DNA of 64,000 nucleotides from a bacterium (GTDB lineage Bacteria > Electryoneota > Electryoneia > Electryoneales > Electryoneaceae): assembly GCA_963669175.1 (NCBI GenBank), contig OY769902.1, positions 1,504,001 to 1,568,000 of the forward strand, read 5' to 3'. This document shows, one piece after another, positions 2,030 to 32,080 of the stretch. The position numbers and the translations under genes were made by a program. Each line of letters starts with the position of its first letter. Position 1 is the stretch's first letter. The notes beneath the pieces are model-generated. The model searched no databases. It saw only the letters and a program-made list of their open reading frames with translations, and had not been told where the DNA came from.

Positions 2030-2052
2030 GTTTGAACGGGAAAGGGTGTCGC

Positions 2053-6472: not shown

Positions 6473-6694
6473 GCCGAGTAAGCTAGCGAAGTGAGTCGAT
6501 AAACGCAATGACTCCCCCGGCTTGCCGGACAACATCGAGACTTACACTGATTGGCTGAATCTCGGGAGAATGTAGTTGGGAAAAGGGAAACCCGAATGTT
6601 ATATTTTCCTAATTTTTCTAATCCCTATTATCACGTCGTGTGCTGAAGTATATTGTCACCTTACAGGTGCGGAGAACCGGCAACGGAGCTACTC

Positions 6695-9400: not shown

Positions 9401-11731
9401 TTATTTTACGAGGATTGCTTTCCTCAACACCCGCTCCTCTCCGGCTTGGACCCTGACGATATAGACTCCGGAAGCCATGCGGTTCATGGGTAACATGAGC
9501 TGATGTCTGCCACGTTCCAGCGAACGTCTGACCGGTTCCATCACACGCTGTCCGGTGATAGCAAAGACACTGATCTCCACATCACCCGCACGAGGCAATT
9601 CAACGCTCACGGTTGTGACCTGGTTAAACGGGTTCGGGTATAACTCAGCAACAAGATGCGAGGTCGGAAGCTCGGAGTTGCTTTCTTCGTTATCCGGGGT
9701 ATGCAGTTGATCATAATAGAACGCGCCGATGTCGGCGACTGTACCGTCCGAATCGAGTTCAGTCGCAGGATTTCCGGCGTCTATCAGCGGTGAACCTTCT
9801 TGCAGGTGAAAATCCCCGGCATCAGGATCGACGAAGAGGGGATCGATGTTGCTGAAAATGGTGTTTCCGGTTTCTATGTTTGCGCCAAAGGGATGCTCCG
9901 TATCAGGGAAATAACCGGAATAATCTATGACAGAAGCTGTTCCTGAGACAAGTGTGTCCTCAAACCCATAAAAGAAGCTGTTCAGGATTTCCGCCTGTTC
10001 CTCGCCATAATTGGTTACAGCCGTTCCTTCAGCGTCATTATTCACAAAGGTGCAACGGTCAAGCTGTCTGAACCTGTTGGTCAGTTTGCCTTCTACAAGG
10101 GTGCGTTTCATCAGCTCAAACCGGGTTGTGCCGTACTTGCAGACAATGGAATCCTGCACCGCAAGGCGGGAATCCCGTATCACTGAATTTCCCTGCAACG
10201 ACCAGTTACCTTCATCTGTGATCGCATTCAGGGTGAGATTTCCTGCCTGGATGTCCGCATGTTCGAGGACGTACGGCAAATCAAGAATGAAATTATCAGC
10301 AATGATGTTCAGTCCGGTCCAGGTTGAGTCTGCACGCAGAAACCGGAATGGACCGTAGGTGTATTCCCGGGTATTGCAGTCGAACACCATATTCGGCATC
10401 ATACTCACGGTTTGCCCGGCGCTTTCCACTTCAATAATGACAGGATTCTCCGGTGTGCCGTTGATGTACAACTCGCTGAAAGGAGAGAAGAGATTACCGG
10501 ATAGCAGATCAGTGAAATTGGCGATAATATGCGCCCCCGGCCCCAGCACCAATTCGTCTGCAACGGTGATTGGTTCAGTGATGACAACGGTGGTGTCTTC
10601 GAGATGGTTGAAATAGCTGCGTTCGGGTCTGAGTCCGTCGGTACGCGGGAACCCGGGGGGAGGCGCCCAGGCGAGACGTTGGTCATACTGGGCGTCCATT
10701 TTATACCCGGTGCCGTTACAATTGGAGGTATGCCAGTACCCGCGCTGACGTTGTGCCAGCGAGCCACGAAGGTAAATGTTGCCTCGTTCGTCGCGTTCAT
10801 CCGCGTGGGGACCGTCCGGATCACACCAGATATAGTCATCTTCGGGATTGTTCTGGTGCTCGAATGTAAAAGAACCGTTCGCTGCCATCAAAGCAGCCAT
10901 GATGATCACATGTGAACTGTCGTGGTTGCCATTTGCCCGGTATAATCCATTCCCGCGTCCATTGGCCCAGGTGTCGGCGATGATAATGTCGTTCTGCGCA
11001 ACAATGCCCAGTCTATTACAATGCTCTTCCGGAACGACCTGCGGAAAATTGTTCACAGTAAAAGGGGCATGCATAATATTGTCGAGGAGGTAAATATCGC
11101 CTGAAGAGGCCAGTGTGGTTTGCCCATTGAACACACCATGTCCATCATCTTCATCGCATCCCTGTATTTCCAGTCTGCCCTCGACAAACACGCATGTGTT
11201 GCTGCCGTACATAACTATCGTTCTATTCAACATATTGGCTGGGTCATAAGGTAAATCACTACTCCACTGCTCAAGAAAAAAACTTCCAGTTCTTGAAGTG
11301 AGACGTGATTGCCATGCGCCGCTGTTATTGGAGTAATATTGCCCCTGTTCCGAAGCTATTTCGCGCAGGTACTGCAGGCTGTCGGGGAAGTAGACGGAAT
11401 CCGCATCGAAAGTCAGCCCACTAACGAACTCACCGCCAACCGCGAAGGAAGGTTGCGCGCAGGTGACCGGGAGCAGAAAGGTGACTGAATCCGCACGAAA
11501 CACCGAATTGAAATGGAACGGGCCTATGAATCGTGTTTCGTTGACGTATTCCGGATGTGGCGTCCAACCCAGTGTATCCCCTTGAGGTGTGATCTCGGAA
11601 TTGGAGATGTAGAGGTAATTGCAGAAACGTGGCAAGGATTCAGCCTGGACACTTGTTGCCAGCAGTATCAAACAGGCGGTTGCCTGCATCACGATGAGGG
11701 GAAAGCGTTGCAGATCAGTTCGATTTCTCAT
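9401..11731 (-). CDS. Array paralog 1: secreted DUF4900-like/beta-helix protein with T9SS-type C-terminal domain
   Basis: Signal peptide; GPFHFN, NGRGNG, WCDP.GPH..ERG.I.LRGSLAQ.QRG..H.SNC.GTGY....YD.RL...PP; DF.L..GSPLIDAG.P..D.DG..ADIGA; YPNPFN..MASGVY..KAILVK. Confidence 0.85.
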   Translation of the reverse strand: MRNRTDLQRFPLIVMQATACLILLATSVQAESLPRFCNYLYISNSEITPQGDTLGWTPHPEYVNETRFIGPFHFNSVFRADSVTFLLPVTCAQPSFAVGGEFVSGLTFDADSVYFPDSLQYLREIASEQGQYYSNNSGAWQSRLTSRTGSFFLEQWSSDLPYDPANMLNRTIVMYGSNTCVFVEGRLEIQGCDEDDGHGVFNGQTTLASSGDIYLLDNIMHAPFTVNNFPQVVPEEHCNRLGIVAQNDIIIADTWANGRGNGLYRANGNHDSSHVIIMAALMAANGSFTFEHQNNPEDDYIWCDPDGPHADERDERGNIYLRGSLAQRQRGYWHTSNCNGTGYKMDAQYDQRLAWAPPPGFPRTDGLRPERSYFNHLEDTTVVITEPITVADELVLGPGAHIIANFTDLLSGNLFSPFSELYINGTPENPVIIEVESAGQTVSMMPNMVFDCNTREYTYGPFRFLRADSTWTGLNIIADNFILDLPYVLEHADIQAGNLTLNAITDEGNWSLQGNSVIRDSRLAVQDSIVCKYGTTRFELMKRTLVEGKLTNRFRQLDRCTFVNNDAEGTAVTNYGEEQAEILNSFFYGFEDTLVSGTASVIDYSGYFPDTEHPFGANIETGNTIFSNIDPLFVDPDAGDFHLQEGSPLIDAGNPATELDSDGTVADIGAFYYDQLHTPDNEESNSELPTSHLVAELYPNPFNQVTTVSVELPRAGDVEISVFAITGQRVMEPVRRSLERGRHQLMLPMNRMASGVYIVRVQAGEERVLRKAILVK

Positions 11732-11810
11732 CTGTCAGTCTCCTGGTATAACCATAGTCACGTGTCGGGAAACACGATTCAACATCTCAATGCGGTAACT
11801 ATAAAAACTC

Positions 11811-12046
11811 GTTTCACGCAAAGACGCAAAGGCGCAAAGAAAAGATTAAAAACATTTTAAGATAAAATATAAACTAATCTATCCTTAATTATAAAAATAC
11901 AAATAATATATTATTATGATTATTATGATTAATATTTAGTTGTAAATTCTTATTGGCATTTTTAAATTGTTTTATAAAATTTATATATTATTCAAATTAT
12001 TTCTTTATCTTTTCTTTTATCTTTTCTTTGCGCCTTTGCGTGAAAC
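11811..12046. mobile_element. AT-rich inverted-repeat-bounded element, copy 1 (MITE-like or invertible), interior orientation A
   Basis: Left GTTTCACGCAAAGACGCAAAGGCGCAAAGAAAAGAT; right ATCTTTTCTTTGCGCCTTTGCGTGAAAC; interior almost all A/T. Confidence 0.75.
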
Positions 12047-12060
12047 ATGTAGTGAAATGT

Positions 12061-14535
12061 TTACTTCAACAGTAAAATTTTCCTGACATCCATCCCCTGT
12101 TGTCCTGAGGCACGCAGGAAATAGGTGCCTGATGCCAGCGAGGCGCCGTTAATGGTCATAGTCTGCATTCCCGCCAGCATGAGACCGTCATGGATAGCCG
12201 CAACCGAACGTCCCAGGATATCCACCAGCTCGACCCGGACAACACCGGAACGGGGCAGCGCAAGCGTAACCTCTGCCACCGGGTTGAACGGGTTGGGATA
12301 AACGCTTTCAATTCGGAAGGCGGTTGGAAGACTCTCGGTACTGGTCAGGTCATCCGGGACATCGGTGGGATCGCACCAATAGGCTCCGATATCGGCGATG
12401 GAACGGTCCGGGTCACGTGGGCTGTCAGGTGATCCCGCATCAATCAACGGGCTTCCGGGGAGCAGGTAATAGTTCATCGAATCGGGCTCAACGAACATCG
12501 GGTCGACATTCGCCAGGATATTTTCGCCCACTTCCATTGGGTTCCAGAAAGGATAACCGTTGGGGAACTGGTCGTAGGCGCAATAGTCCAGTTGTCCTCC
12601 GCTACCACGTACCAGCGCGGCCTCGTATCCCTGGAAAAAACAACTGCGGATAACAACATCACGGTTCAGATCATTGGTTATCGCACAACGTGCATTGCCT
12701 GGATCAATGAAGGTGCAACGGTCAATGGTGCTGAACTTGTTAAACAGAGAACCGATCACAAGGTTGGATGTGAAGTTGTCATATTCATTCTGTTCTGTTG
12801 AACAGAGTATTGTGTCAGCAATCAGGGTGGAGCGATTAATAGAGTGTGAACTACTCAGCCCCCTGAGCTCAATATGATTGGCAACAAATTCAGATTTGGT
12901 CAACCTGTCCGGAATATTGAGAGTGAGGCGGTTACCATAAATGTGTAAACCTGACCATTCACGATCGTCAGAGTAATCTTCATTAGCAGTACACACGATA
13001 GTATCTGCTATCAAGGTGGAATTAGATATAGAATACGGGCAGCTATCATACTCTTCACATAGTCCCCGCAACTCAATATGATTAGCTTCAAATCTTGCAT
13101 CGGTCAGCATTTCGGGCATATTGACAAGCAGGCGGTTGCCATAGATATGCAAACCAGACCATTCGTGGTTTCCAAAGTAGCTTTGCAACTCGCGCATTGG
13201 CAACCCTTCACTTGTATTGTATACAAGTGAACTTTGATATTCCCCTGCATCTGTGAAGTGAATACTAACGGGATTGTCCGCTTCACCTTCAACACGAAGA
13301 TCACCGTATCTGAACTGGAAAAGCGGTTTCCCGCCCAGGTCCGCATGGATGGTTGTGCCAGGGCCGAGTGTTAAACTCATAAATACTAGAATCGGTTGAG
13401 TGACATACACAGTAGTATCTTGCCATGTGGTACCTTCTCTATTCCAAATGACAATCTGGTCTTCTTCCGGGCTGATAGAGGGGATACCGTTCGGTGGGTA
13501 GACTGCCAACCTTTCATCATAATAGAAGTCCAGATTATAGCCAGTGCCGCCACAGTTGGAGTTGTGCAGTTGCCCACGCTGCTGTTGTGCCAATGAGCCA
13601 CGCAGGAAGATCGTGCCACGTTCGTCGGTCTGGTCAGGATGCGCGCCATTGGGATCACACCAGATATAGGCATCATCAGGATTGTTCTGGTTCTCAATGG
13701 TGAGTTGGCCCAACGTCACCAGGGCGGCAGTGATCACAACGTGTGCCCGGTCATGGGAACCGTTGCCCTCGTGGAATCCATTACCGCGACCATTGGCGCT
13801 CGTGTTTCCAATAAGGATATTCTGTTCGGAAAGCAATGCCAGTCGGCTGTAAGTAATATCAGGGATTACAAAGGGGAAGTTCTCGTTTGTATAGGGATCA
13901 ATGATGATGTCGTTCATCAATGTCATATTGCCACTGCACCCGATAGAAACCTGACCATTTATCGAAGGAGAATTGCGACGGGGAGATAAAACCTGAAGCT
14001 CACCTTCGACAAATATGCTCGTACCACTACCGCACCATATTGATTCGTGATTCACAAGGCTACATGAATCATAAGGCGCACCCATCTCCCATTGTTCAAG
14101 ATATGCTCGCGTACCTACTAATTTGATTCGTGTTTGCCAACTTCCACGATGGTTGGAATAAAACAGTCCACTCCAATCCGCAAGTTCACGTAGCGCATGC
14201 AGCGAATCAGAAAACGCGATTGAGTCAGCATTAAAAGTCAGGCCGCCCAGGTATTGGCCGCCCACATTGAAGCGTGGTTGGGCGCAGAAAACCGGGTCGG
14301 TGAAGATCGCGGCATCGGCTTTGAACACGGAATTGAAGTGGAAGGGGCCGTAGAAAGCGCTGCCGGTCCAGCCTAATGTATCGCCGTCAAGCGTGATCTC
14401 AGTGCCGGAGATGTAAGCGTAGTCGGTGAAACGTGTGTACTGTTGGGCGTGTACCGACGCAATAACGCCGGAAAGCAGGTACAGTACCAGTACGTTCAGG
14501 AACAGTCGTCTCCCGATCAAAGTAAGCTTCTTCAT
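12061..14535 (-). CDS. Array paralog 2 (has an internal ~68-aa duplication)
   Basis: Same motif set as paralog 1; RBS AGGAG; ends YPNPFNP..LASGTY..KILLLK. Confidence 0.88.
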   Translation of the reverse strand: MKKLTLIGRRLFLNVLVLYLLSGVIASVHAQQYTRFTDYAYISGTEITLDGDTLGWTGSAFYGPFHFNSVFKADAAIFTDPVFCAQPRFNVGGQYLGGLTFNADSIAFSDSLHALRELADWSGLFYSNHRGSWQTRIKLVGTRAYLEQWEMGAPYDSCSLVNHESIWCGSGTSIFVEGELQVLSPRRNSPSINGQVSIGCSGNMTLMNDIIIDPYTNENFPFVIPDITYSRLALLSEQNILIGNTSANGRGNGFHEGNGSHDRAHVVITAALVTLGQLTIENQNNPDDAYIWCDPNGAHPDQTDERGTIFLRGSLAQQQRGQLHNSNCGGTGYNLDFYYDERLAVYPPNGIPSISPEEDQIVIWNREGTTWQDTTVYVTQPILVFMSLTLGPGTTIHADLGGKPLFQFRYGDLRVEGEADNPVSIHFTDAGEYQSSLVYNTSEGLPMRELQSYFGNHEWSGLHIYGNRLLVNMPEMLTDARFEANHIELRGLCEEYDSCPYSISNSTLIADTIVCTANEDYSDDREWSGLHIYGNRLTLNIPDRLTKSEFVANHIELRGLSSSHSINRSTLIADTILCSTEQNEYDNFTSNLVIGSLFNKFSTIDRCTFIDPGNARCAITNDLNRDVVIRSCFFQGYEAALVRGSGGQLDYCAYDQFPNGYPFWNPMEVGENILANVDPMFVEPDSMNYYLLPGSPLIDAGSPDSPRDPDRSIADIGAYWCDPTDVPDDLTSTESLPTAFRIESVYPNPFNPVAEVTLALPRSGVVRVELVDILGRSVAAIHDGLMLAGMQTMTINGASLASGTYFLRASGQQGMDVRKILLLK

Positions 14536-14549
14536 GGTTCTGTCTCCTG

Positions 14550-16823
14550 TTATTTCAGCAATACGATTTTTTGTGTCAGTGTTTCTCGCTCAAACCTCAC
14601 GCGCAGGAAATAGGTGCCTGATGCCAGCGAAGCGCCGTTAATGGTCATGGTCTGCATTCCCGCCAGCATGAGACCGTCATGGACAACTGCTACCGAACGT
14701 CCCAGGATATCCACCAGCTCGACCCTTACATCACCGGAACGGGGCAGCGCCAGCGAAACCTCAGTCACCGGGTTGAACGGGTTGGGATAAACGCTCGCAA
14801 TCCGGAACGCGGTTGGAAGACTCTCGGTTCTGGTTAGGTCATCCGGGACATCGGTGGGGTCGCACCAATAGGCTCCGATATCTGCGATGGAACGGTCCGG
14901 GTCACGTGGGCTGTCAGGTGATCCGGCATCGATCAACGGGCTTCCGGGGAGCAGGTAATAGTTCATGGAATCGGGCTCAACGAACATCGGGTCGACATTG
15001 GCCAGGATATTTTCGCCCACCTCCATCGGGTTCCAGAAAGGATAACCGTTGGGGAACTGGTCGTAGGCGCAGTAGTCCAGTTGTCCTCCGCTACCACGCA
15101 CCAGCGCAGCCTCATATCCCTGGAAAAAACAACTCCTGACAGTTACATAACGATCTTGGTCGTTGGTTATCGCACAACGAGCGTTTCCCGGATCAATAAA
15201 AGTGCAACGGTCAATGGTGCTGAACTTGTTGAACAGAGAACCGATCACGAGGTTGGATTCAAAGTCCACGAATCTATTTGTTTGTGTCGTACACAGAATC
15301 GTGTCAGCGATCAGGATCGAGTTGGTAATTGTGTGTTCCAAATCTTCTTCACTGACAGAGTTTAATTCGATATGATCAGCAACAAGTTTAGAGTCGGTCA
15401 GAGATATAGGAACATTGAAAAGAAGACGGTCTGCATATACATGTAAACCTGACCACTCGTTATCTGCATAATAATTCCATTCATCCCAGAATTGGATTTC
15501 GCCATTATTATATACTAGCGTACTAGGATGTTCACCTGAATCTGTGAATACTATTGTTACAGGATTTTCTGCTTCGCCATTAACAAAAAGGCGGTTCCAG
15601 AACTGGAAAAGTGGTCGCTCACCGAGGTTTGCATAGATAGTCGTTCCCGGGCCAAGTGTCAAAGGGGCGTACAAGTAAATAGGTTGTGTAACATGTATGG
15701 TCGTGTCTTGCCAAGTACATACATCCCGAATAACAATCTGTTCTTCTTCAGGGCCGATAATGGGGATGCCATTCGGTGGGTAAGTAGCCATTCTTTCATC
15801 ATAGTAGAAATCCAGATCGTAGCCAGTACCACCACAGTTTGAGTTGTGCAGTTTCCCACGCTGTCGTTGTGCCAGCGAGCCACGCAGGAAAATTGTTCCA
15901 CGTTCGTCAGTCACATCCGGATGTGGACCATTGGGATCGCACCAGATATAGGCATCATCCGGATTGTTCTGATCTTCGATGGTAAACTGACCAAGGGTTA
16001 TCAGGGAGGCAGTGATGACAATATGCGCTCGGTCATGGGAACCATTGCCCATGTGGAATCCGTTACCACGTCCGTTTGCATTGGTATTCCCTATAAGAAT
16101 ATCCCCCTCGGCCAATAGCGCCAATCGGCTGTATGTGTCTTCAGGGATAACATAGGGGAAATCCTCGTTGGTATACGGGTCAATAAGCACATCATCCATC
16201 AGCTTCATTTTGCCGCTGCAACCTATGGACATTTGACCATTAATCGGGACGGGATTATGCAAGCGCGAAGCGATTTGAAGATCACCTTCGATGAACACGC
16301 ACACATTGCTTCCATAAGAGATAGCCATATGATCCACCAGGCTTGTTGAATCATAAGGCGCTCCGGATTCCCATTGTTCAAACAAAAAGCATCCATTGTG
16401 TACGTTTATTCTTGATTGCCAGCGTCCACCATGATTGCTAAAATAATTGCCACTCATGCTTGCGATTTCACGTACCCGGTGAAGCGTATCGGGGAACGCG
16501 ATGGAGTCAGCATTAAAAGTCAGGCCGTTCAGGTATTGGCCGCCCACATTGAAGCGTGGTTGGGCGCAGAAAACCGGGTCGGTGAAGATGGCCGCATCGG
16601 CTTTGAACACGGAATTGAAGTGAAAAGGGCCGTAGAAAGCGCTGCCGGTCCAGTCCAGTGTGTCGCCGTTAAGAGTGATCTCCGTGCCGGAGATGTAGGC
16701 GTAGTCGGTGAAACGTGTGTACTGTTGGGCAAAAACGCTGGATGGTAGAGTGTAAAAAAGGAAAAATACCATCACGGACAGGATTAACTGCCTTGTAAGA
16801 CGATAGATAGCTGGATTTCTCAT
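14550..16823 (-). CDS. Array paralog 3
   Basis: Same motif set; N- and C-terminal blocks nearly identical to paralog 2 at DNA level; ATG 16823 chosen over the ORF-track start at 16874. Confidence 0.86.
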   Translation of the reverse strand: MRNPAIYRLTRQLILSVMVFFLFYTLPSSVFAQQYTRFTDYAYISGTEITLNGDTLDWTGSAFYGPFHFNSVFKADAAIFTDPVFCAQPRFNVGGQYLNGLTFNADSIAFPDTLHRVREIASMSGNYFSNHGGRWQSRINVHNGCFLFEQWESGAPYDSTSLVDHMAISYGSNVCVFIEGDLQIASRLHNPVPINGQMSIGCSGKMKLMDDVLIDPYTNEDFPYVIPEDTYSRLALLAEGDILIGNTNANGRGNGFHMGNGSHDRAHIVITASLITLGQFTIEDQNNPDDAYIWCDPNGPHPDVTDERGTIFLRGSLAQRQRGKLHNSNCGGTGYDLDFYYDERMATYPPNGIPIIGPEEEQIVIRDVCTWQDTTIHVTQPIYLYAPLTLGPGTTIYANLGERPLFQFWNRLFVNGEAENPVTIVFTDSGEHPSTLVYNNGEIQFWDEWNYYADNEWSGLHVYADRLLFNVPISLTDSKLVADHIELNSVSEEDLEHTITNSILIADTILCTTQTNRFVDFESNLVIGSLFNKFSTIDRCTFIDPGNARCAITNDQDRYVTVRSCFFQGYEAALVRGSGGQLDYCAYDQFPNGYPFWNPMEVGENILANVDPMFVEPDSMNYYLLPGSPLIDAGSPDSPRDPDRSIADIGAYWCDPTDVPDDLTRTESLPTAFRIASVYPNPFNPVTEVSLALPRSGDVRVELVDILGRSVAVVHDGLMLAGMQTMTINGASLASGTYFLRVRFERETLTQKIVLLK

Positions 16824-16971
16824 GTCGGCCCCCACGTGCAGAGTTGTATCTTCTTCATGAAACGGGGGATGCAATTCAAGAACTACAGGAAGGTGGCCTT
16901 TTTAGCGGGTGAATCTTTACTAAAGATACTCATATCAGCTCAAAGATACAAGAGGTAAAGACAAAAAACTC

Positions 16972-17215
16972 GTTTCACGCAAAGACGCAAAGGCGCAAAG
17001 AAAAGAAAAAGAAAAGAACTGATTTACTTATTTATTTATTACGTCTCTTTTTTTTATGTAAAAAATATTAATGTATTTGCAAAATATGATCTTATATAGC
17101 GATAAAAATTGAATAGTATATATAAAAAATGAATTATATAATTGTATTGGTTTTCTTTTTAACATTAAGATTTTGTTTTTTCTTTTCTTTGCGTCTTTGC
17201 GTCTTTGCGTGAAAC
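16972..17215. mobile_element. AT-rich inverted-repeat-bounded element, copy 2, interior probably orientation B
   Basis: GTTTCACGCAAAGACGCAAAGGCGCAAAG ... CTTTGCGTCTTTGCGTCTTTGCGTGAAAC; interior starts AAAGAACTGATTTA like copy 3, otherwise diverged. Confidence 0.75.
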
Positions 17216-17229
17216 ATGTAGTCGAATCA

Positions 17230-19476
17230 TTACTTCAGCAGGAGGATTTTCCTGATATCCATCCCCTGCGGGCTTTTGGCCTGCACAAAATACGTCCCGG
17301 AAGCCAGCGCTGTCCCATCCAGGGTGAAGCAGTGCATGCCTGCCGCGAGATTCGCGTGAGCTAGCTGCTGTACTTCTCGTCCCAGCACGTCATACACCGT
17401 AACCGTAAGCAATCCAGTTTGTGGCAAGGCGATGCGGATTTCTGTGGACGGGTTGAACGGATTCGGGTAAACGCTTTCAATATGAAAAGCATCGGGTAGA
17501 GAAGTGCCGGGATCGGGATGATCGACAGACGTATAATCAAAACAATACGCGCCGATATCGGTACGTGAGCCATCAGGATCAGCGGGTGACAATGGATCGC
17601 CTGCATCGATCAGGGGACTGCCGGGTTGCAGGTGGAAATTGAAGGAGGCTGGATCGATAAATTCCGGGTCTGTGTACTCGAGTACATAATGGCCATAGGT
17701 AATATCGCCCTGCATGGCCGGAACAGCATCGGTCAGGTAAGCACAATGATCCATTTCTACCGGGTACATGGACGACAGCAGCGTGGTAGTTCCGGTGAAG
17801 CAGGTGTTGTTTATCACCAATCCATCACCGGATTGGAAGTTCTGCAGACGTTCGAAACCGTCGAACGCGAAGGTGCAGTGATCAATCGAGTTAAAATAGC
17901 TATATAACCAGCCGGTCACCTCGCTGTACTCGAGATTACGGTAACGGTCTTCCTCGGGCGAATCTGTATGCGTATAGAGCTGGTTGACACGGAAGACGGA
18001 GCTGTCGATGTCGATCGAGGCGCTTGTGTCATTGAGGAGCGACACGGGTTGGATCAGGGTAAGCTGTTCGGCGAGCACATTGATTCCAGTAATCTTGCCC
18101 GGGATTTTCAGGGCGACATTATCGCCGGAAACCTGGAGGTTGCGCCATTCGTCTGCGCCATGCAAATTCTCAAAATCACCATCGAAAGGAATGATGGAAT
18201 CGCCAGTTGTCTGGATATTGATATGAACCGGATTCTCTGCTGTGCCGTTGATCTTGACCGCTGCACTAAAAAGCTCGAGAGGTGGATCGCTGGCGCCATC
18301 CTCGATGATCAGGGTGGTGCCCGGCCCCAGTTCCAAATCACCGAATATCATCAGTGAATCACCGTTACTGATCGTTACCGTGGTGTCGTGCCAAACTCCC
18401 TTCTGGACCAGATCATCCCGGTGTTGCCATTCGATTTCCGGGGAACCGGTCGGCCAGGCATGTGCCAGGCGGGTATCATAAACATATTCACGTGTGTATC
18501 CGGTGCCGCCGCAGGTAGAACGATGCAGGTAGCCCATACGGTAAAAGGCTGCCGACCCACGGAGGTAGATGTCGCCACGTTCATCTGTTTCACCGGAATG
18601 CACACCCGCCGGATCACACCAGTAATAATCATCGTCCGGGTCATTCTGGTCTTCGAAGGAGATTTCTTCGTTCAGGGCCAGCAGGGACGCCATGATAATG
18701 ATATGAGCATTATCGTGATTACCGGCGTTGTGGTATAACCCATTGCCCCTGCCGTTGGGACAGGTATTGCCGATCAGGATATTCGCTTCCGAAGCGAGGC
18801 CCAGCATATGGGGATTGTCTTCCGGGATAAGATCGGTGAAATCGTCTACGGTGAACGGGGTCAACAGCAGGTTATCGACAAGACGCATATTGCCTGATGC
18901 GCCTATCGTTGTACTTCCCTGGATACCATCGCCGAAAATGTCAAGATGACCATCGAAAAACAGGACACTTTCACCGAACGCAACCGTTCCTTCAGACGTC
19001 ACCTGCGTACTGTCCCAAGGCTGATCCGCCGGCCAGGCCCACCATTGCCAGCCGTCCTCGGAGGTTGTACAACGGAATTGCAGGGAGTTGTCTGGATTGT
19101 CAAAGAAGTTTCCCTGCGTGGTGGCCAGTTCACGAAGGCTGTGAAGAGTGTCCGGGAATAGTACCTGGGGAAAACGAAACTGTGGCTCTGTCGGATACCA
19201 GGGCGAAGCGCCGCCGCCAAGGTTGAACTCATTGGCTGAACTGAAGATTAGTCCGTAAAACTGCGGTGAATAACGAATACCGATTTGGGTGTTGCAATGG
19301 ATAGCACCGTAAATCGTATCCGGTGTCCAGAACCAGATTACCTCATTAAAAGTGCTTTCCTGGGTGTGGTAAATATACATGTAGTCGCTGAACCTGGTGA
19401 ACAGGGCAGCCTGGGAAGCGGGAAGCACGCCAAGGAGAAGCAGAATCAGGCTCAGTGTCACGTATGTGCGCTTCAT
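17230..19476 (-). CDS. Array paralog 4
   Basis: Real start is MKRTYVTLSLILLLLG at ATG 19476 (RBS GGGAGG); IWFWTPDTIYGAIH, WCDPAGVH..DERG, HRSTCGGTGY, YPNPFNP. Confidence 0.87.
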   Translation of the reverse strand: MKRTYVTLSLILLLLGVLPASQAALFTRFSDYMYIYHTQESTFNEVIWFWTPDTIYGAIHCNTQIGIRYSPQFYGLIFSSANEFNLGGGASPWYPTEPQFRFPQVLFPDTLHSLRELATTQGNFFDNPDNSLQFRCTTSEDGWQWWAWPADQPWDSTQVTSEGTVAFGESVLFFDGHLDIFGDGIQGSTTIGASGNMRLVDNLLLTPFTVDDFTDLIPEDNPHMLGLASEANILIGNTCPNGRGNGLYHNAGNHDNAHIIIMASLLALNEEISFEDQNDPDDDYYWCDPAGVHSGETDERGDIYLRGSAAFYRMGYLHRSTCGGTGYTREYVYDTRLAHAWPTGSPEIEWQHRDDLVQKGVWHDTTVTISNGDSLMIFGDLELGPGTTLIIEDGASDPPLELFSAAVKINGTAENPVHINIQTTGDSIIPFDGDFENLHGADEWRNLQVSGDNVALKIPGKITGINVLAEQLTLIQPVSLLNDTSASIDIDSSVFRVNQLYTHTDSPEEDRYRNLEYSEVTGWLYSYFNSIDHCTFAFDGFERLQNFQSGDGLVINNTCFTGTTTLLSSMYPVEMDHCAYLTDAVPAMQGDITYGHYVLEYTDPEFIDPASFNFHLQPGSPLIDAGDPLSPADPDGSRTDIGAYCFDYTSVDHPDPGTSLPDAFHIESVYPNPFNPSTEIRIALPQTGLLTVTVYDVLGREVQQLAHANLAAGMHCFTLDGTALASGTYFVQAKSPQGMDIRKILLLK

Positions 19477-19517
19477 TCTTCCTCCCAGGGGTAGATCGTA
19501 TCCACTGAAAACTACTC

Positions 19518-19752
19518 GTCTCACGCAAAGGCGCAAAGGCGCAAAGAAAAGATAAAAGAAAAGACAAAGAACTGATTTAAATGATAAATAAATTATTATA
19601 ATACTATTTAATAATGCCAATAAGAATATATAGCTAAGTATTAATCGCGACAATTATAATAATATATTATTTATATTTTTAATTAAGAATAGGTTAGTTT
19701 ATGTTTTGCCTTAAAATGTTTTTAATCTTTTCTTTGCGTCTTTGCGTGAAAC
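19518..19752. mobile_element. AT-rich inverted-repeat-bounded element, copy 3, interior orientation B (reverse complement of copy 1 interior)
   Basis: Its reverse complement reads AAAGATTAAAAACATTTTAAG.CAAAA.ATAAACTAA.CTAT.CTTAATT..AAATAATATATTATTAT..ATTAATA.TTAG..ATTCTTATTGGCATT, colinear with copy 1. Confidence 0.8.
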
Positions 19753-19765
19753 GATCAGTTAAGGT

Positions 19766-21997
19766 CTACTTCAGCAGGAGGATTTTACTCACATCCTGTC
19801 CCTGCCGTCCGGCCACACGCACAAAGTAAGTCCCGGATGCCAGAGCTGCTCCGTTAAACGTCAGCGAGTGAGTTCCGGCCTGCACTAATCCGTCCTGAAG
19901 CAGCGCCACACGCCGTCCCAGGATATCCAGCACTTCAACCGTGATCCTGTCCGCTTGCGGAAGTGCAATGTTTACCTGCGTCACCGGGTTGAAGGGGTTC
20001 GGGAAGACAGACGCGATACCGAAGCTTTCGGGAATCGTTTTCTGCGGATAGACAGGATCATTTATCCCAAGCTGATCAAAATAGTACGCCCCGATATCGG
20101 CGACCGTTGAATCCGGGTCAAATTCCCACGAAGGATCGCCGGCATCAATCAGCGGGCTTCCGGCGCTCAGGTGGAAGTAGCTGTCCGCGAATAACGGATC
20201 CACTTCACCCAGCATGTCATCGCCGACGCTGATGGCTTGTGAAAATGGTGTATCGCCTTCAAAGCCATACCATGCAGAAAAATCAATGAAAGCGGAGAGG
20301 CCATTTACCAGCCACTCCGGGGAGCCGTCAAAGAAGGTATTCACGATATACGCGCTAGTAACCTGGTTCGAAAGCGCGACATGGGCATCACTGCTGAAAG
20401 TGATACGATCCAGCTCGGAGAACCGGCTGATCGTGGTGCCATGCATCTCGGAACGTTTTAACACGACAAACTGGTCATCCTCGTTTTCAAGTTCAAACTG
20501 GTCGCCGAGGAACACAACCTTTTCCAGCACCATCGGGTTTGCAGGGCTGGTTTCCAGGTCTTCATGCGGAACGACTGTCATATTTCCAACTTCGAAACGG
20601 GCGTTGTACAGGTTCTGCGGGATCACGCTCCGAACATTGTATCCCTTGATGACAAAGTCATTCCAGGTGGTATCAGCAAGGATTGCCTGATCGCCGGTCC
20701 TCTCATCCCAGCCAACCAGGTTTGCAGTTTCATCTTCCCCGCCTTCGATCATGATCACAACGGGATTGTCCGGGGTGCCATCGATACGGAACTGCGCCCC
20801 GGCATAGAAGAAGAAAACACCTTCCGGGTCAGGATCGACAACATGGATTTCCGTACCCGGTCCAAGTGTCAGGTTGTTCCTGCGGAAATTGAAACGTGAT
20901 TGTACCGTAACCATGGTATCGGCCCAGACCTGGTCACCGTAACGGAAATCATCCGGGTACATGTGAGGCGGCGGGTTGTTCCTGAAACGATCATCATAAT
21001 AATACTGCTTGGCATACCCGGTGCCGCCACAGTTGGAACGGTGCATGTAGCCTCGCCGTTGCTGGACGATCGAACCAATTACACGGAAAACACCACGTTC
21101 ATCGGTTTCGCCAACATGATCACCCTGCGGATCGCACCAGAAATAATCATCCCAGGTATCATTCTGGTGCTCAAAGGTGATGCTTTCATCCAGTGCGACC
21201 AGCGCCGCGGTCACTACCAGGCTGGAACTGTCCGGCATCCAGCCGTGGTACACATATCCATTGCCTTGCCCATTGGCAGGGGTATCCGCGATATAGATGT
21301 TACGCAGGCCGATGATACCGACACGGGAGGAAACGGTATCGCTGAGCGTTTCCGGCCAGGAGTCGGGATCGACCCCTTCGTAAACAAGATTGTCAATCAA
21401 GTACACATCTCCGGCAACCCCGATCCCGGTGCCACCCAGGACATGATCCCCTTCGATCATCAGGTCGCCGTTGAAGTAAAGCGCCCGGTCGGCATCATAG
21501 GGGAAGGTTCCCTCTTCGGTGATCGGGCCATCACCATAAGGCACGCCGGCCTCCCAGCTCCGTACTAGCCATCCGAGTGAGGTTGCCCGGCAGATGTACT
21601 GCAGTGAATCAACAACACCTGAAAAATACGTTCCCTGTTCAGTAGCGGCCTCTTCCAGCCAGGTAATGGTTGAAGGGAGGATGACTTCTGGGGCGTTAAA
21701 AATTGGATCGTAAGGAGATATAAAATAAGCTCCTCCGCCATGAATAAAATCCTCTTCAGTTGTGCTTACATATCCAAAGCAAACCGGGTACATTTTTACG
21801 CCAATACCATCGTTCGAATGGATGTCGCCGTAGAGACTATCCGGCGTCCAGAACCAGATGATCTCGTTGAACTCGGTAACCTCGATATCACTCATGTAAA
21901 CATAATCGAGAAAAGCGGACAGTTGGGCAAACGAGCGAACAGGAAGAGACAGTAACCCAATGGCCACTGCCAGGATAGCAATTCGCAGAGCTTTCAT
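19766..21997 (-). CDS. Array paralog 5
   Basis: IWFWTPDSLYGDIHSN, WCDPQGDH..DERG, HRSNCGGTGYAKQYYYDDRF..PPPH, FPNPFNP; alternative start GTG at 22003. Confidence 0.87.
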   Translation of the reverse strand: MKALRIAILAVAIGLLSLPVRSFAQLSAFLDYVYMSDIEVTEFNEIIWFWTPDSLYGDIHSNDGIGVKMYPVCFGYVSTTEEDFIHGGGAYFISPYDPIFNAPEVILPSTITWLEEAATEQGTYFSGVVDSLQYICRATSLGWLVRSWEAGVPYGDGPITEEGTFPYDADRALYFNGDLMIEGDHVLGGTGIGVAGDVYLIDNLVYEGVDPDSWPETLSDTVSSRVGIIGLRNIYIADTPANGQGNGYVYHGWMPDSSSLVVTAALVALDESITFEHQNDTWDDYFWCDPQGDHVGETDERGVFRVIGSIVQQRRGYMHRSNCGGTGYAKQYYYDDRFRNNPPPHMYPDDFRYGDQVWADTMVTVQSRFNFRRNNLTLGPGTEIHVVDPDPEGVFFFYAGAQFRIDGTPDNPVVIMIEGGEDETANLVGWDERTGDQAILADTTWNDFVIKGYNVRSVIPQNLYNARFEVGNMTVVPHEDLETSPANPMVLEKVVFLGDQFELENEDDQFVVLKRSEMHGTTISRFSELDRITFSSDAHVALSNQVTSAYIVNTFFDGSPEWLVNGLSAFIDFSAWYGFEGDTPFSQAISVGDDMLGEVDPLFADSYFHLSAGSPLIDAGDPSWEFDPDSTVADIGAYYFDQLGINDPVYPQKTIPESFGIASVFPNPFNPVTQVNIALPQADRITVEVLDILGRRVALLQDGLVQAGTHSLTFNGAALASGTYFVRVAGRQGQDVSKILLLK

Positions 21998-22146
21998 GGT
22001 CACCCCCCCTAAGGGCTCATCCAGCAGTTCACGCGGGGATGCGTTCCGGCTGCAACTTCTTTTATGGTGGCCAGATAATCTTTAACTAAAATATGTGCGG
22101 TCTCTTTCGAGATGCAAGCGCCTCGGAAACATTGGAAAAAAAACTC

Positions 22147-22385
22147 GTCTCACGCAAAGACGCAAAGGCGCAAAGGCGCAAAGGCGCAAAGGCGCAAAGG
22201 CGCAAAGGCGCAAAGACACAAAGAAAAGATTAAAAACATATTTTAAGGTGAAAGAATAAACAATTTTATGTATATAAACAGAATGTAAGTACTTTTAATA
22301 TTACAATACTTACAATTAAAGTATAACTACTAAATCTCATGAGCGTTTATAAAATTGTTAGAAATAAATAATATAGTAGTTAAAT
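22147..22385. mobile_element. AT-rich element copy 4: left arm expanded to (CGCAAAGR)x8, right arm absent; interior orientation A
   Basis: 22153-22216 holds eight CGCAAAG[G/A] units, then CACAAAGA, then AAAGATTAAAAACATATTTTAAG as in copy 1; no CTTTGCG arm before the stop at 22388. Confidence 0.7.
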
Positions 22386-22387
22386 TA

Positions 22388-24634
22388 TTACTTCAGCAGG
22401 AGGATTTTACTGACATCTGTCGCTTGATGCCCGGAGAGGCGCACGAAGTATGTCCCGGAGGCCAGCTCAGCCCCATTAAACGTCAGCGAGTGGGTTCCGG
22501 CCTGCATCAAACCGTCCTGAAGCAACGCCACACGCCGTCCCAGGATATCCAGCACTTCCACCATGACATGATCCGCTTGCGGAAGTGAAATATCCACCTG
22601 CGTCACCGGGTTAAAGGGGTTCGGGAAGACAGACGCGATACCGAAGGATGATGGGATAGCCTGCTGCGGTGCATCGTGATCATCCACCGCCAACTGGTCG
22701 AAGTAGTACGCCCCGATATCGGCGATGGAACCGTCCGGGTCACGCGCACTTCCCGGATCACCGGCATCGATCAGGGGACTGTTTCCGTGCAGATGGTAAT
22801 CGCCGTTCTCGGGATCGACGAATCGTGGCTCAACATCCTCCAGCATATGCTCGCCGACCGCAATCTGCTGCCAGAAAGGATTATGCCCGCTGAATCCATG
22901 ATAACCGGAATAGTCTATGCTTCCACTCGACTGAGAGATCAGCGCTTCTTCATAACCCTGGAAGAAGGTATTTAGCACGGTCAGGTCTGGATTGAGATTC
23001 TGGATCGCGAAATCGGATGTGCCGATAAAGGTGGCCCGTTCGATACGCTGGCAGGAATTTCGCAGGGTGCCATGTATCTCGGCGTTTTTCAATTCAAGGT
23101 TATGGCCGCCGGGATTGAAAACCTCCAGGATAGTGCCAGTGAACATAAAACCATTGATCAGCATGGGATTCAGAGTGTCGATTTCGAGGGCTTCGTGTGG
23201 CTGCATGGTCACACGCGGAGCATTGATCTGAACATCTTGCAAGGTGTGCGGTATTTTCAGATTAATCCAGGTATTTCCGCTACTTTCGATGACCAGTCCG
23301 GACCATGTTGAATCGCTGATAACCCCGTGACCGTCAGTGCCCAGACTTTCCTCATACAAGGTGAATTCCGGCAGGGATTCCTCGTCCAGAAAGATACGAA
23401 CCGGGTTGTCCGAAGTACCGTTGATAAACAGCTTCATGCTGTCTGAAAGGGCACAGAGACTTCTCAAATCTCCCGAAACATGGATTTCGGTGCCGGGGCC
23501 TAAAATAAGGGTATTCCTGAAATACAACTGGTTGGACAGGAACAGGGTCGTATCGGTTAATGTGTGCTCTCGTCCCCAGAATGTGTTGGGGTACATGTGC
23601 GGCGGAGGGTTGGTAAGAAACCGCGCATCGTACTGGTATCTCGTGGCATAGCCCGTCCCGCCACAGGTGGAGCGATGGGTATATCCCCGCCGCATCTGGA
23701 CCAGGTTACCGATCAGGTTAATTGTCCCACGTTCGTCGCTCTGGCCGGGGTGCATTCCCTGAGGATCGCACCAGCGATAGGATTCCCAGGTGTCATTATG
23801 ATGTTCAAAGGTGAAGCTTTCCCCAAGAGCTACCAGCGCTGATGTTACGATGACATGTGAACTGTCGAAGTTGCCCCCGGATCGGTACAGCCCATTCCCG
23901 CGACCATTGGCCCAGGTATCGGCAATCCGGATGTCCCCGGCCGCGATGATGCCAAGGCGTGAAGTGATGGTATCGGAAAGGTTGTTTTGAAATCCGTTTG
24001 TGGGAACACCATCATACACAAGATTGTCGGTGATAAAGACATCCCTGTAAGTGTGGATTCCCGTTCCGCCGAGGATATGTTCCCCTTCGATGTAAAGATC
24101 GCCTTCAAAACTCAGCGCCACGTTTGGCGAGTAAGGAACCCAGTCCTCCAGCTCCATATTTGCGCTGTCAGGGGGCGTACCCAGCGGGTAACCTGTGATA
24201 TGCCAGCCATCCATGGTGGCTTTGCATTGGTATTGACGCAGCAGGCCGTCATCAGCGCTGTAATGGTGCCCTTGTGCCTGCGCTGCTATAATCATCCAGT
24301 CATGGATAGTCGGGAAATAGACTTCCGGTGCATTAAACTGGGGGGGGTAGGCAAACCAGGGCGAATACCCGGCGCCATGAACGAAATCGTCTTCTGTCGT
24401 GCTGACGTGACCGTGGAATTGAGGGGCGTACTTTATCCCAATGGCACTGTTGGAATGCACATTACCATAAACTGTATCCGGTGTCCAGAACCAGATAATA
24501 TACCCGAACATTGTATGTTCGTCATTCGTCAGGTACATGTAGTCCAGGTAATTGGACAGTTGTGCGGATGCTGCTGGTGGCAGTAGAGAGAGTATGCCCA
24601 GAAAAGCAGTGGTGATTACTAACGATTTCTTCAT
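22388..24634 (-). CDS. Array paralog 6
   Basis: IWFWTPDTVYGNVHSNSAIGIKYAPQFHG, WCDPQGMH..DERG, HRSTCGGTGY..YDARF..PPPH; sorting domain nearly identical to paralog 5. Confidence 0.88.
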   Translation of the reverse strand: MKKSLVITTAFLGILSLLPPAASAQLSNYLDYMYLTNDEHTMFGYIIWFWTPDTVYGNVHSNSAIGIKYAPQFHGHVSTTEDDFVHGAGYSPWFAYPPQFNAPEVYFPTIHDWMIIAAQAQGHHYSADDGLLRQYQCKATMDGWHITGYPLGTPPDSANMELEDWVPYSPNVALSFEGDLYIEGEHILGGTGIHTYRDVFITDNLVYDGVPTNGFQNNLSDTITSRLGIIAAGDIRIADTWANGRGNGLYRSGGNFDSSHVIVTSALVALGESFTFEHHNDTWESYRWCDPQGMHPGQSDERGTINLIGNLVQMRRGYTHRSTCGGTGYATRYQYDARFLTNPPPHMYPNTFWGREHTLTDTTLFLSNQLYFRNTLILGPGTEIHVSGDLRSLCALSDSMKLFINGTSDNPVRIFLDEESLPEFTLYEESLGTDGHGVISDSTWSGLVIESSGNTWINLKIPHTLQDVQINAPRVTMQPHEALEIDTLNPMLINGFMFTGTILEVFNPGGHNLELKNAEIHGTLRNSCQRIERATFIGTSDFAIQNLNPDLTVLNTFFQGYEEALISQSSGSIDYSGYHGFSGHNPFWQQIAVGEHMLEDVEPRFVDPENGDYHLHGNSPLIDAGDPGSARDPDGSIADIGAYYFDQLAVDDHDAPQQAIPSSFGIASVFPNPFNPVTQVDISLPQADHVMVEVLDILGRRVALLQDGLMQAGTHSLTFNGAELASGTYFVRLSGHQATDVSKILLLK

Positions 24635-32016: not shown

Positions 32017-32080
32017 AAATACTGTATCGTTTTGCATGAATACTGTCATGGTACATTTTCGAAGCAGAGTCAGGAGTTGG

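Follow-up and report, generated by a model that had tools for sequence, protein, structure and literature searches.

The locus analyzed here raises the question of what a tandem set of secreted proteins does with an N-terminal domain that recalls the tip of a pilus. The window is a stretch of 64,000 nucleotides from a bacterial genome of the Electryoneaceae (contig OY769902.1). A first-pass annotation, made from the sequence alone, had proposed that six of its genes carry a PilX/ComZ-type domain redeployed in adhesins, DNA receptors or enzymes.

Organization of the gene array

The array consists of six co-oriented paralogs of 743-824 aa, all on the minus strand. Each has a Sec signal, an N-terminal domain (N-domain) of ~325 aa, a right-handed beta-helix with a SPLIDAG...DIGA cap and a type A sorting domain of the type IX secretion system (T9SS). 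Gene 1 (9401..11731; 776 aa; signal peptide, beta-helix and cap present) has its N-domain at 10637-11635 and its sorting domain at 9413-9643, and gene 2 (12061..14535; 824 aa), built in the same way, has them at 13474-14439 and 12076-12303. The open reading frames of genes 3, 4 and 5 extend to TTG 16874, TTG 19653 and GTG 22003, respectively, and these called starts are probably too far upstream. The ATGs at 16823, 19476 and 21997 are preceded by purine-rich runs resembling Shine-Dalgarno sequences and each yields a normal signal peptide. Read from these ATGs, gene 3 (14550..16823) encodes 757 aa with the N-domain at 15756-16721 and the sorting domain at 14562-14792, gene 4 (17230..19476) encodes 748 aa with the two domains at 18433-19401 and 17245-17472, and gene 5 (19766..21997) encodes 743 aa with the two domains at 20948-21922 and 19778-20008. 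Gene 6 (22388..24634; 748 aa) likewise has a signal peptide, N-domain, capped beta-helix and sorting domain. GAF-HD and HDOD signalling genes flank the array, and there is no pilus context.

All six proteins can be aligned over their full length, and genes 2-6 are 33-42% identical to gene 1. The invariant columns (Y..Y, H.N, NG.GNG, WCDP.G.H, DERG, GTGY, YD.R, SPLIDAG.P, DIGA and PNPFN) include every motif that the first-pass annotation had listed as shared by six paralogs. By region, pairs of the six were 32-77% (N-domain), 31-75% (middle region) and 31-84% (sorting domain) identical. A profile built from the six recovered each array gene from the genome (E = 0 to 3e-224), well above the level of chance. 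In addition, the 3' ~600 nt of genes 2 and 3 are 90-95% identical, and the beta-helix of gene 2 contains an internal duplication of ~50 aa.

Predicted export route

The sorting domain scored above the cut-offs in six of six proteins, both for PF18962 (30.9-41.1 bits; cut-off 27) and for TIGR04183 (30.3-38.2 bits; cut-off 23). In gene 6 it occupies 22400..22630 on the minus strand (residues 669-745; 33.9 and 32.8 bits). The six N-termini, read by eye from the revised starts, each contain a basic stretch, a hydrophobic stretch and an A-x-A-like site directly before the N-domain, as in a Sec signal, and none of the six contains a prepilin helix. A Sec signal in place of the prepilin helix, together with a C-terminal sorting domain, was thus found in all six, as had been proposed. 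Both the PorU sortase and the SprA translocon are encoded in the genome, scoring 688.8 bits (cut-off 420) and 799 bits (cut-off 200), respectively. The six-gene profile hits at least 151 places in the genome, nearly all through the cap and sorting part. In the N-domain, two cysteines (C264 and C299) are both present in 49 of 181 domains, both missing in 100 and found singly in 32, which was taken to fit a life outside the cytoplasm. Cargo with type A sorting domains may be released instead of anchored.

Fold of the N-domain

The N-domain of gene 6 (23582..24559, minus strand; residues 26-351) was modeled by AlphaFold (AF2) with a pLDDT of 94.1 and a pTM of 0.92. The model is a triangular beta-solenoid with a long conserved beta-hairpin at its end. 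The comparison with Thermus ComZ suggested by the first-pass annotation placed ComZ (6qvi_A) at rank 1 of the solved structures in both searches. In VIA-align (48,161 chains) it had a Z of 16.0 and an rmsd of 3.7, and the superposition spanned 232 of 326 N-domain residues and ComZ chain residues 131-508 at 13% identity. In Foldseek it had an E of 0.03 and a probability of 0.90, and no chain matched at E <= 0.001. The VIA-align runners-up were ice-binding proteins of the DUF3494 type (3WP9, 7BWX, 5UYT, 6BG8 and 4NU2; Z 13.9-15.1 over 182-194 residues), the best of which is less than 1 Z unit from ComZ, so the two are tied by Z alone. These were followed by tapirin adhesins (Z 6.3-8.2 over 165-179 residues), and all others had Z <= 5. 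None of the N-domain fold matches among the 48,161 chains was an enzyme. The family sequence profiles did not reach ComZ in the PDB. As modeled, the N-domain is a triangular beta-solenoid of the ComZ/ice-binding-protein fold class.

The domain had also been assigned to DUF4900 (PF16241), and this assignment was supported in many relatives of the array proteins but only below threshold in the array itself. Relatives of the N-domain bear the NCBI name "DUF4900 domain-containing protein," and at E <= 0.01 the model was matched by 41 of the 57 relatives of pilin form and, in the long T9SS-form alignment, by 18 of 59 rows. The family was also detected in the Thermus thermophilus control genome. In the array, however, DUF4900 was seen in only two of six proteins at E <= 0.1 and below threshold (16.8 and 13.8 bits, where the cut-off is 29.4), and PF16241 exceeded its gathering score in none of the six and nowhere in the genome. 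Only 89 positions long, the Pfam model aligns with the initial ~50 residues of the N-domain (F..Y.Y...E...H.N), and the conserved NGRGNG...DERG...GTGY core falls outside it. The GTGY...YD.R block is therefore not the DUF4900 signature it had been taken for.

Pilin forms and the N-domain family

The genome also encodes two PilX-like proteins, P0010 and P0015, that carry the N-domain at 52% and 49% identity. Their N-termini consist of R-K/R-G-S, a hydrophobic helix and W..DE..QAYY, and they have no sorting domain. P0010 lies in a type IV pilus operon whose genes run pilin, T2SSE ATPase, minor pilins, P0010, PilM, PilN, PilO, one unassigned gene and secretin, and this order recurs in a pilus operon of another genome (locus L037). 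For the first 157 residues of P0010 the nearest named Atlas cluster was PilX_N (score 0.93), which is a lead only. A pilin-like N-terminal helix joined to the N-domain was found in P0010, P0015 and 55 further relatives. The pilus-tip identity of the domain is thus indicated by three independent lines: the solved-structure match, the same-genome pilin paralogs, one of them in a pilus operon, and DUF4900 in the relatives. Together these support the core of the earlier interpretation, a PilX/ComZ-type pilus-tip domain on a helix-less Sec and T9SS scaffold.

To our knowledge, ComZ has so far been the sole structurally characterized pilus-tip receptor made from a beta-solenoid. The domain of this fold found here belongs to a very large family (1526 representative clusters at 50% identity), which almost every sampled genome of one FCB-group phylum carries (59 of 61). 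Some members are pilus-tip pilins, and others are soluble or anchored T9SS cargo. In the unrooted domain tree the pilin and Sec/T9SS forms are interleaved, and the hypothesis of one clade was rejected (p-AU 7e-47). The tree shows repeated switching between the two forms. The earlier term "redeployed" implies a direction, from pilin to T9SS, that an unrooted tree does not give. Expression should be far easier for the T9SS forms, which are without the hydrophobic pilin helix, and this would make the ligands of pilus-tip solenoids directly testable. The family also offers a working annotation for hundreds of proteins of uncultured bacteria now named "hypothetical" or "T9SS sorting domain-containing."

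Middle region

The middle region of gene 6 (22631..23599, minus strand; residues 346-668) was modeled as a right-handed parallel beta-helix (pLDDT 89.5) that ends in the cap motif SPLIDAGDP...DPDG..ADIGA. Thus the beta-helix middle that had been read from the sequence was recovered in the model and its fold matches, next to the sorting domain found in all six proteins. The best VIA-align matches were 9cdu_A (rhombotarget A; Z 17.8, 270 aligned) and 1ru4_A (Pel9A; Z 17.1, 271 aligned). The best Foldseek match was 7dmk_B (E 3.6e-5), through residues 435-747 of this PL6 lyase, its second beta-helix; 1ru4 matched at E 1.3e-3. In the long-form alignment, 30 of the 59 rows matched Beta_helix, 20 DUF5123 and 20 NosD.

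What the proteins may do

Because the same solenoid occurs in minor pilins of the pilus in the same genome, the array proteins are most likely binding proteins with a pilus-tip-type head. We think it probable that they are non-enzymatic adhesins or ligand receptors, exported by T9SS and either displayed on the surface or released. Sec would export the protein, the type IX system would move it across the outer membrane by means of the C-terminal sorting domain, and removal of that domain would leave it C-terminally anchored or released. The mature protein would be a rigid two-part rod, with the capped beta-helix next to the anchor and the ~325-residue solenoid at the far, N-terminal end. By analogy with ComZ, the solenoid of the PilX-like minor pilins would cap the pilus. 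The presence of one domain in the array proteins and in a pilus tip subunit suggests one probable binding module on two surface machines. Six diverged heads on short fixed stalks would serve related targets. From this arrangement we infer surface display with the head distal and a binding rather than a catalytic role, with DNA, a polysaccharide or a solid surface as candidate ligands.

The middle region is where a different reading, that of secreted polysaccharide-degrading enzymes whose solenoid is a substrate-binding module, finds its evidence. Its top fold matches include true lyases (Pel9A, PL6 alginate lyases and chondroitinase B) as well as rhamnogalacturonases, the Foldseek hits and the Pfam families of the long-form rows point the same way, and T9SS often exports glycan-degrading enzymes. 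However, 131 chains matched the model at Z >= 8, including the adhesins PfbA, EtpA and HMW1, so what is matched is a fold rather than an enzyme family. The helix body shows no invariant cluster of K, R, E or H among the six paralogs; the residues kept are glycines, prolines and hydrophobics plus D379, T380, N429, T561, N574 and D603 (gene 1 numbering). Over the 59 rows, the columns of the modeled middle region conserved at >= 90% are G9 and the cap motif only, with none in the helix body. Conservation is also lowest in the middle (31-38% identity when the gene 2/3 pair is left aside), and the six proteins matched no CAZy-type Pfam or NCBIfam family at E <= 1. A lyase or hydrolase is thus unlikely. 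In the head, ~20 polar and glycine positions are 90-100% conserved over 181 domains of both forms, including E14, D28, N37, N218-G219, N255, D275-x-R277-G278, G284, Q288, R291, H295, T302-G303-Y304, D311 and R313; they cluster in a single C-terminal block of loop and hairpin (secondary structure from the AF2 model). Conservation of this degree is expected more of a catalytic site, or of a site for a fixed ligand, than of an adhesin that diversifies, and it counts against the binding-protein reading. It would suit a solenoid with its own activity or cofactor site, acting as an enzyme or as the receptor of a single invariant molecule, with the pilus and T9SS forms bringing the same chemistry to different places. 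We consider this improbable: the fold matches of the head include no enzyme, ComZ, ice-binding proteins and tapirins are all binding proteins, and the conserved block may serve to cap the solenoid or to nucleate its folding.

The ligand could also be specified more narrowly. Extracellular-DNA receptors like ComZ, keeping DNA at the cell surface for uptake, nutrient or matrix, would agree with the several conserved Arg and His residues of the head and with the binding of dsDNA by ComZ. However, in ComZ (PMC6561018, which also describes this binding) the implicated lysines K98 and K233 are located between the pilin and the solenoid domain, and the array proteins have no pilin domain. With only 13% identity to ComZ and a related fold that also binds ice, cellulose and other surfaces, there is little chance that the array is specific to DNA. 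A broader and rather doubtful idea is that the solenoid is an exchangeable ligand-binding head, repeatedly moved within this phylum between the retractile pilus tip and fixed T9SS stalks, with both displays directed at one kind of ligand, such as extracellular DNA or a polymer. Static arrays would hold the substrate at the surface, the pilus version would reel it in, and both would use the near-invariant Arg/His/Asp/Tyr block for recognition or catalysis.

Comparison with known systems

The binding proteins proposed here can be compared with several known systems. ComZ of Thermus thermophilus (PDB 6QVI) shares with the N-domain a large, irregular triangular beta-solenoid, and relatives of the N-domain also occur in pilin-like proteins beside minor pilins in pilus operons. 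The array proteins differ in having no pilin domain, pilus context or detectable sequence match to ComZ, and in adding a Sec signal, a T9SS sorting domain and a second beta-helix. In ComZ, the lysines for DNA binding are partly in the pilin domain, and it is this domain that the array proteins lack. According to PMC6561018, the ComZ solenoid is the pilus-tip domain of a DNA-binding protein, with FfIBP as its own closest fold.

Ice-binding proteins of the DUF3494 type have the same triangular solenoid, but the N-domain is ~100 residues longer and has long loops and the terminal hairpin, and a DUF3494-type Pfam match at E <= 1 was found in none of the six proteins. Some of these ice-binding proteins are also T9SS or surface proteins. 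In choice-of-anchor A proteins (pAdhesive_15, PF20597) and diatom Trailins, a solenoid like those of ice-binding proteins and ComZ serves as a presumed adhesive head on proteins anchored by LPXTG, PEP-CTERM or T9SS (bioRxiv 10.1101/2023.03.06.531300); the portion consulted mentions no pilin-embedded form of choice-of-anchor A. These and the N-domain are different sequence families, and none of the six matched PF20597 at E <= 1.

The tapirins of Caldicellulosiruptor (4WA0, 6N2B and 6N2C) are beta-helix adhesins that bind cellulose and are encoded beside a type IV pilus locus. Their match to the head model is weak, with a Z at the level of common arrangements; unlike the array proteins, they lack a T9SS domain, and their hosts are Gram-positive. 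The right-handed beta-helix proteins Pel9A (1RU4), PL6 7DMK (C-terminal domain) and rhombotarget A (9CDU) share the fold of the middle region including its C-terminal cap (Z 16.1-17.8), with no family-level sequence match, and the array paralogs appear from their alignment to have no conserved catalytic residues there. ComZ-like tip pilins and T9SS beta-solenoid adhesins are both kinds already known, and the array is a variant of both.

Sequence and Domain Content of the Array Genes

ORF calling in the window found six long open reading frames within 9401-24634, every one on the minus strand (genes 1-6, numbered by rising coordinate). The six paralogs align end to end, with gene 1 sharing 33-42% identity with the other five, and the motifs listed in the first-pass annotation are all present among the invariant columns of this alignment. 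Between pairs, the N-terminal domain (the head) is 32-77% identical, the middle 31-75% and the C-terminal domain 31-84%. The annotated starts of three ORFs are probably too far upstream. Revised ATG codons on the minus strand at 16823 (gene 3, 757 aa), 19476 (gene 4, 748 aa) and 21997 (gene 5, 743 aa) are each preceded by purine-rich runs resembling Shine-Dalgarno sequences, and each gives an ordinary signal peptide that ends just ahead of the conserved domain.

The T9SS-type sorting domain proposed in the first-pass annotation scored above the curated cut-off in all six genes, with the Pfam and NCBIfam models alike. The proposed DUF4900 assignment held in part: two of the six genes gave sub-threshold matches (16.8 and 13.8 bits, cut-off 29.4), but none exceeded the cut-off, and the Pfam model spans residues ~31-79 at the start of the domain rather than the GTGY block with which it had been equated. 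In addition, weak sub-threshold matches to DUF5123 (three of six genes) and choice-of-anchor Q (five of six) fall in the cap region. The genome is a single 5.45-Mb contig, 95.9% complete, and encodes PorU and SprA, both over their cut-offs. The cap and sorting part of the six-paralog profile matches at least 151 places in this genome, and the organism therefore has a very large T9SS secretome.

Structure of the Head and Middle

The N-terminal domain of gene 6 (326 aa) was modelled from an alignment of 68 sequences, with a mean pLDDT of 94.1 and a pTM of 0.92. The predicted head is a mostly-beta solenoid with a long terminal beta-hairpin (residues 275-310) that bears the motifs of highest conservation. 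Its expected likeness to ComZ was borne out at the level of the fold. Three ComZ chains were the top Foldseek matches in the PDB (best E 0.03, probability 0.90), followed by ice-binding proteins, and no match reached E <= 0.001. Against 48,161 representative chains, VIA-align ranked ComZ first (Z 16.0, rmsd 3.7, 232 residues aligned, model residues 1-324 on ComZ chain residues 131-508), followed by four ice-binding proteins (Z 13.9-15.1, 182-194 aligned) and, at lower ranks, three tapirin adhesins (Z 6.3-8.2) and generic beta-helices (Z <= 5). In this comparison with the predicted model, Z alone does not separate ComZ from the best ice-binding protein; ComZ covers more of the model. ComZ itself is described as a ~380-residue solenoid inserted in a GspK-like pilin fold, with FfIBP as the closest fold to that solenoid (PMC6561018); the paired matches of the head mirror this closeness. 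At the sequence level, profiles of the six paralogs, the 68 sequences and 57 pilin-form relatives retrieved no ComZ, pilin or ice-binding protein among PDB chains at E <= 10. The first two profiles gave weak matches (E >= 0.03) to sorting-domain or FlgD-like chains, the six-paralog profile also to an acetone carboxylase, and the pilin-form profile had no matches at E <= 10.

The model of the middle, anticipated as beta-helix-like, covers 323 aa (pLDDT 89.5) and is a right-handed parallel beta-helix, capped at its C-terminal end. The closest matches included rhombotarget A (Z 17.8), Pel9A (Z 17.1) and the second beta-helix of a PL6 lyase (Z 16.1, Foldseek E 3.6e-5). Because 131 chains, adhesins among them, reach Z >= 8, the resemblance is one of fold only.

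Pilin-Form Relatives

Homology searching with gene 6 as query retrieved 64 proteins having the N-terminal domain in common, in two builds. The first is that of the array genes (signal, domain, long middle and sorting domain); one member is named "DUF4900 domain-containing protein" at NCBI. The second, the pilin form, is ~470-560 aa long and is without the sorting domain. Its N-terminus has a short basic stretch, G-S/N, a long hydrophobic helix and W..DE...QAYY; the shared domain begins near residue 155, and 16-39 residues remain after it. Nine copies of the domain are encoded in the window's genome. Six are those of the array, a seventh, also a T9SS form, lies 3.6 Mb from it, and the remaining two are pilin forms, P0010 and P0015, which are 52% and 49% identical to the domain of gene 6.

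By gene order and domain matches, P0010 lies in a type IV pilus operon (G000:C1:1986146-1997089; L013:5146-16089 in the extracted locus). The order is a pilin (N_methyl), a T2SSE (PilT-like) ATPase, a 179-aa ORF with sub-threshold pilin matches only, a 251-aa minor pilin, P0010, PilM, PilN, PilO, a 190-aa ORF and a secretin, after which comes an SLBB/Poly_export protein. The same order occurs at locus L037 of another genome. The array genes are thus paralogous to a PilX-like protein of a pilus operon. No PilX_N or N_methyl match was found by Pfam in any of the 57 pilin forms at E <= 0.01, and five searched with NCBIfam had no match at E <= 1; ComZ was likewise missed by PilFind (PMC6561018). 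An Atlas comparison of P0010 residues 1-157 gave, as a lead only, a nearest named cluster with PilX_N in 86% of members (score 0.93, 161 shared features). With no match to a prepilin model, the pilin identity of the 57 forms therefore rests on the reading of the N-terminus, the operon context and the Atlas lead.

Several other pilin-form loci were noted. At L037:8520-10043, a second ORF of 507 aa stands after the DUF4900 pilin form and before pilM, with no Pfam match at E <= 0.01 and an NCBIfam match of 9.9 bits only (E 0.27). In a MAG labelled Ca. Electryonea clarkiae, a tandem pair of pilin-form genes, 497 and 511 aa long (L028:5362-9044), stands apart from pilus assembly genes, close to a gene for the flagellar protein FliD. 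P0015 (L014:7846-9318) is solitary too, its neighbours being a LysM-FecR-glucodextranase-B protein and a P-type ATPase.

Distribution and History of the Family

A profile of nine domain sequences matched 1526 representative clusters at E <= 1e-3, 610 at E <= 1e-10 and 184 at E <= 1e-30. The gene 6 homologs and domain-profile matches, own copies included (202 proteins), were sorted by our own rules on domain position, length and sorting-domain motif into 58 long T9SS forms, 46 short T9SS forms (domain plus ~100-200 aa), 57 pilin forms, 22 partial domains and 19 others. With the Pfam model Por_Secre_tail, all rows of the long-form alignment matched except the query fragment (58 of 59), and no pilin form did (0 of 57); DUF4900 hits at E <= 0.01 occurred in 18 of 59 long-form rows and 41 of 57 pilin forms. 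The domain is present at E <= 1e-10 in 59 of 61 sampled genomes of the phylum, in 1-11 copies each. Carriers named by MAG label include Candidatus Electryonea clarkiae (Electryoneota, FCB group), Ca. Hatepunaea meridiana, Calditrichaeota/Caldithrix and KSB1. Tandem arrays also occur in other genomes of the phylum (G051, G033, G040, G031 and G018). The G051 array has five copies, one of them (G051:C7:218872-219846) with two in-frame stops (one TGA, one TAA) and probably a pseudogene.

A FastTree phylogeny of 162 full domains intermingles the three forms (pilin, long and short) and requires no fewer than 19 label changes; for the three labels, minima of 5, 10 and 9 changes are forced by well-supported branches. 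A quick IQ-TREE phylogeny of 57 rows, hand-picked out of 181 full domains to span the clades, has 12 label changes, 8 of them forced by starred branches, and the AU test rejects a grouping of the 23 pilin-form domains (delta lnL 733.7, p-AU 7e-47). Because the forms are interleaved and a single pilin grouping is rejected, the domain sequences indicate that the head either changed scaffold several times or, within lineages, was homogenised between scaffolds; being unrooted, the trees give no direction.

The array itself might have arisen by simple recent local amplification. This was rejected: genes 1-3 form one clade of the domain tree, genes 4-6 and the remote seventh copy belong to a 21-member clade made up wholly of T9SS forms (FastTree, 162 domains), and of these two old lineages only genes 2 and 3 are close. 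These two, the closest pair in the array, are 90-95% identical over their last ~600 nt and 60-84% over most of the upstream part, the exceptions there being two windows of higher identity and two of much lower identity at the gene 2 insert. Since the 3' tract is more alike than most upstream sequence, it indicates recent conversion or recombination. The beta-helix of gene 2 also has an internal duplication of ~50 residues.

Surroundings and Intergenic Elements

The array is bordered on one side by a GAF-HD_5 protein (6653-8401) and on the other by two HDOD proteins (24974-27324), and the adjoining ORFs in the window include no pilus or T9SS genes. Scans for sigma-70 promoters (22 sites, 22.2 expected) and terminators (11 sites, 17.1 expected) were uninformative. 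Four of the five intergenic gaps (11790-12060, 16875-17229, 19477-19765 and 22004-22387) carry a long palindromic repeat element of ~230-270 nt. Its inverted arms are tandem 8-mers, TGTTTCACGCAAAG-N-CGCAAAG ... CTTTGCG-N-CTTTGCGTGA[A/G]ACGAG, with up to nine repeats at 22153-22223; the core between the arms is AT-rich and ~190 nt long, and a T-run follows the element. Within the window the arm pattern is matched 18 times, each time in one of the four gaps (0.01 expected); the whole genome has 42 matches (reversed control 0), among them four copies spaced 271 bp apart at G000:C1:2296110-2296945. One copy folds into a single long hairpin (-67 kcal/mol, z -7.3). The element is probably a dispersed MITE/REP-like element and may act as a terminator between array genes.

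Two further ORFs of the window were noted. One (2032-3147) joins an Rrf2-type regulator domain and a DsrC-like domain; the other (31874-38626, 2250 aa) has TPR matches only and overlaps the end of an 877-aa TPR protein.

Conservation and Proposed Function

The analysis established export signals, T9SS machinery, a rod of two solenoids and a head of the ComZ/ice-binding type. T9SS processing takes place at the C-terminal end, so the head would be the distal end of the rod, whether anchored or released. Relatives of the head are reported to bind DNA, ice, cellulose and underwater surfaces (PMC6561018; bioRxiv 10.1101/2023.03.06.531300). Polar conservation comparable to that of the head was not found in the beta-helix body, either in the six paralogs or in the long-form alignment. 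Since no conserved catalytic constellation was seen in the beta-helix of these alignments and the relatives of the head bind, the most likely role of the array proteins, by analogy, is binding. About 20 head positions are 90-100% conserved across 181 domains of both forms, including E14, D28, N37, N218-G219, N255, D275, R277-G278, G284, Q288, R291, H295, T302-G303-Y304, D311 and R313. Given such strong polar conservation, the head may instead have a fixed ligand or a catalytic role. On the binding interpretation, the array proteins would be adhesins or ligand receptors with six diverged heads. Two head cysteines co-occur: of the 181 domains, 49 have both, 100 lack both and 32 have a single one, which fits a disulfide in an exported protein.

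Comparison with Known Systems

ComZ-type tip pilins are already known, as are ice-binding-like solenoid adhesins anchored by T9SS or otherwise (choice-of-anchor A; bioRxiv 10.1101/2023.03.06.531300). In the available portion of that diatom paper, ComZ and type IX secretion appear in separate contexts. No description of a ComZ-related head on a T9SS scaffold, of its arrays or of its exchange with pilins was found in the literature on DUF4900 or on ComZ with type IX secretion. Compared with these systems, the new elements are a ComZ-related head family carried on a T9SS scaffold, its tandem arrays of T9SS-form heads and near-universal presence in one phylum, and a head that appears to have been repeatedly exchanged with a pilin scaffold, or homogenised between the scaffolds.
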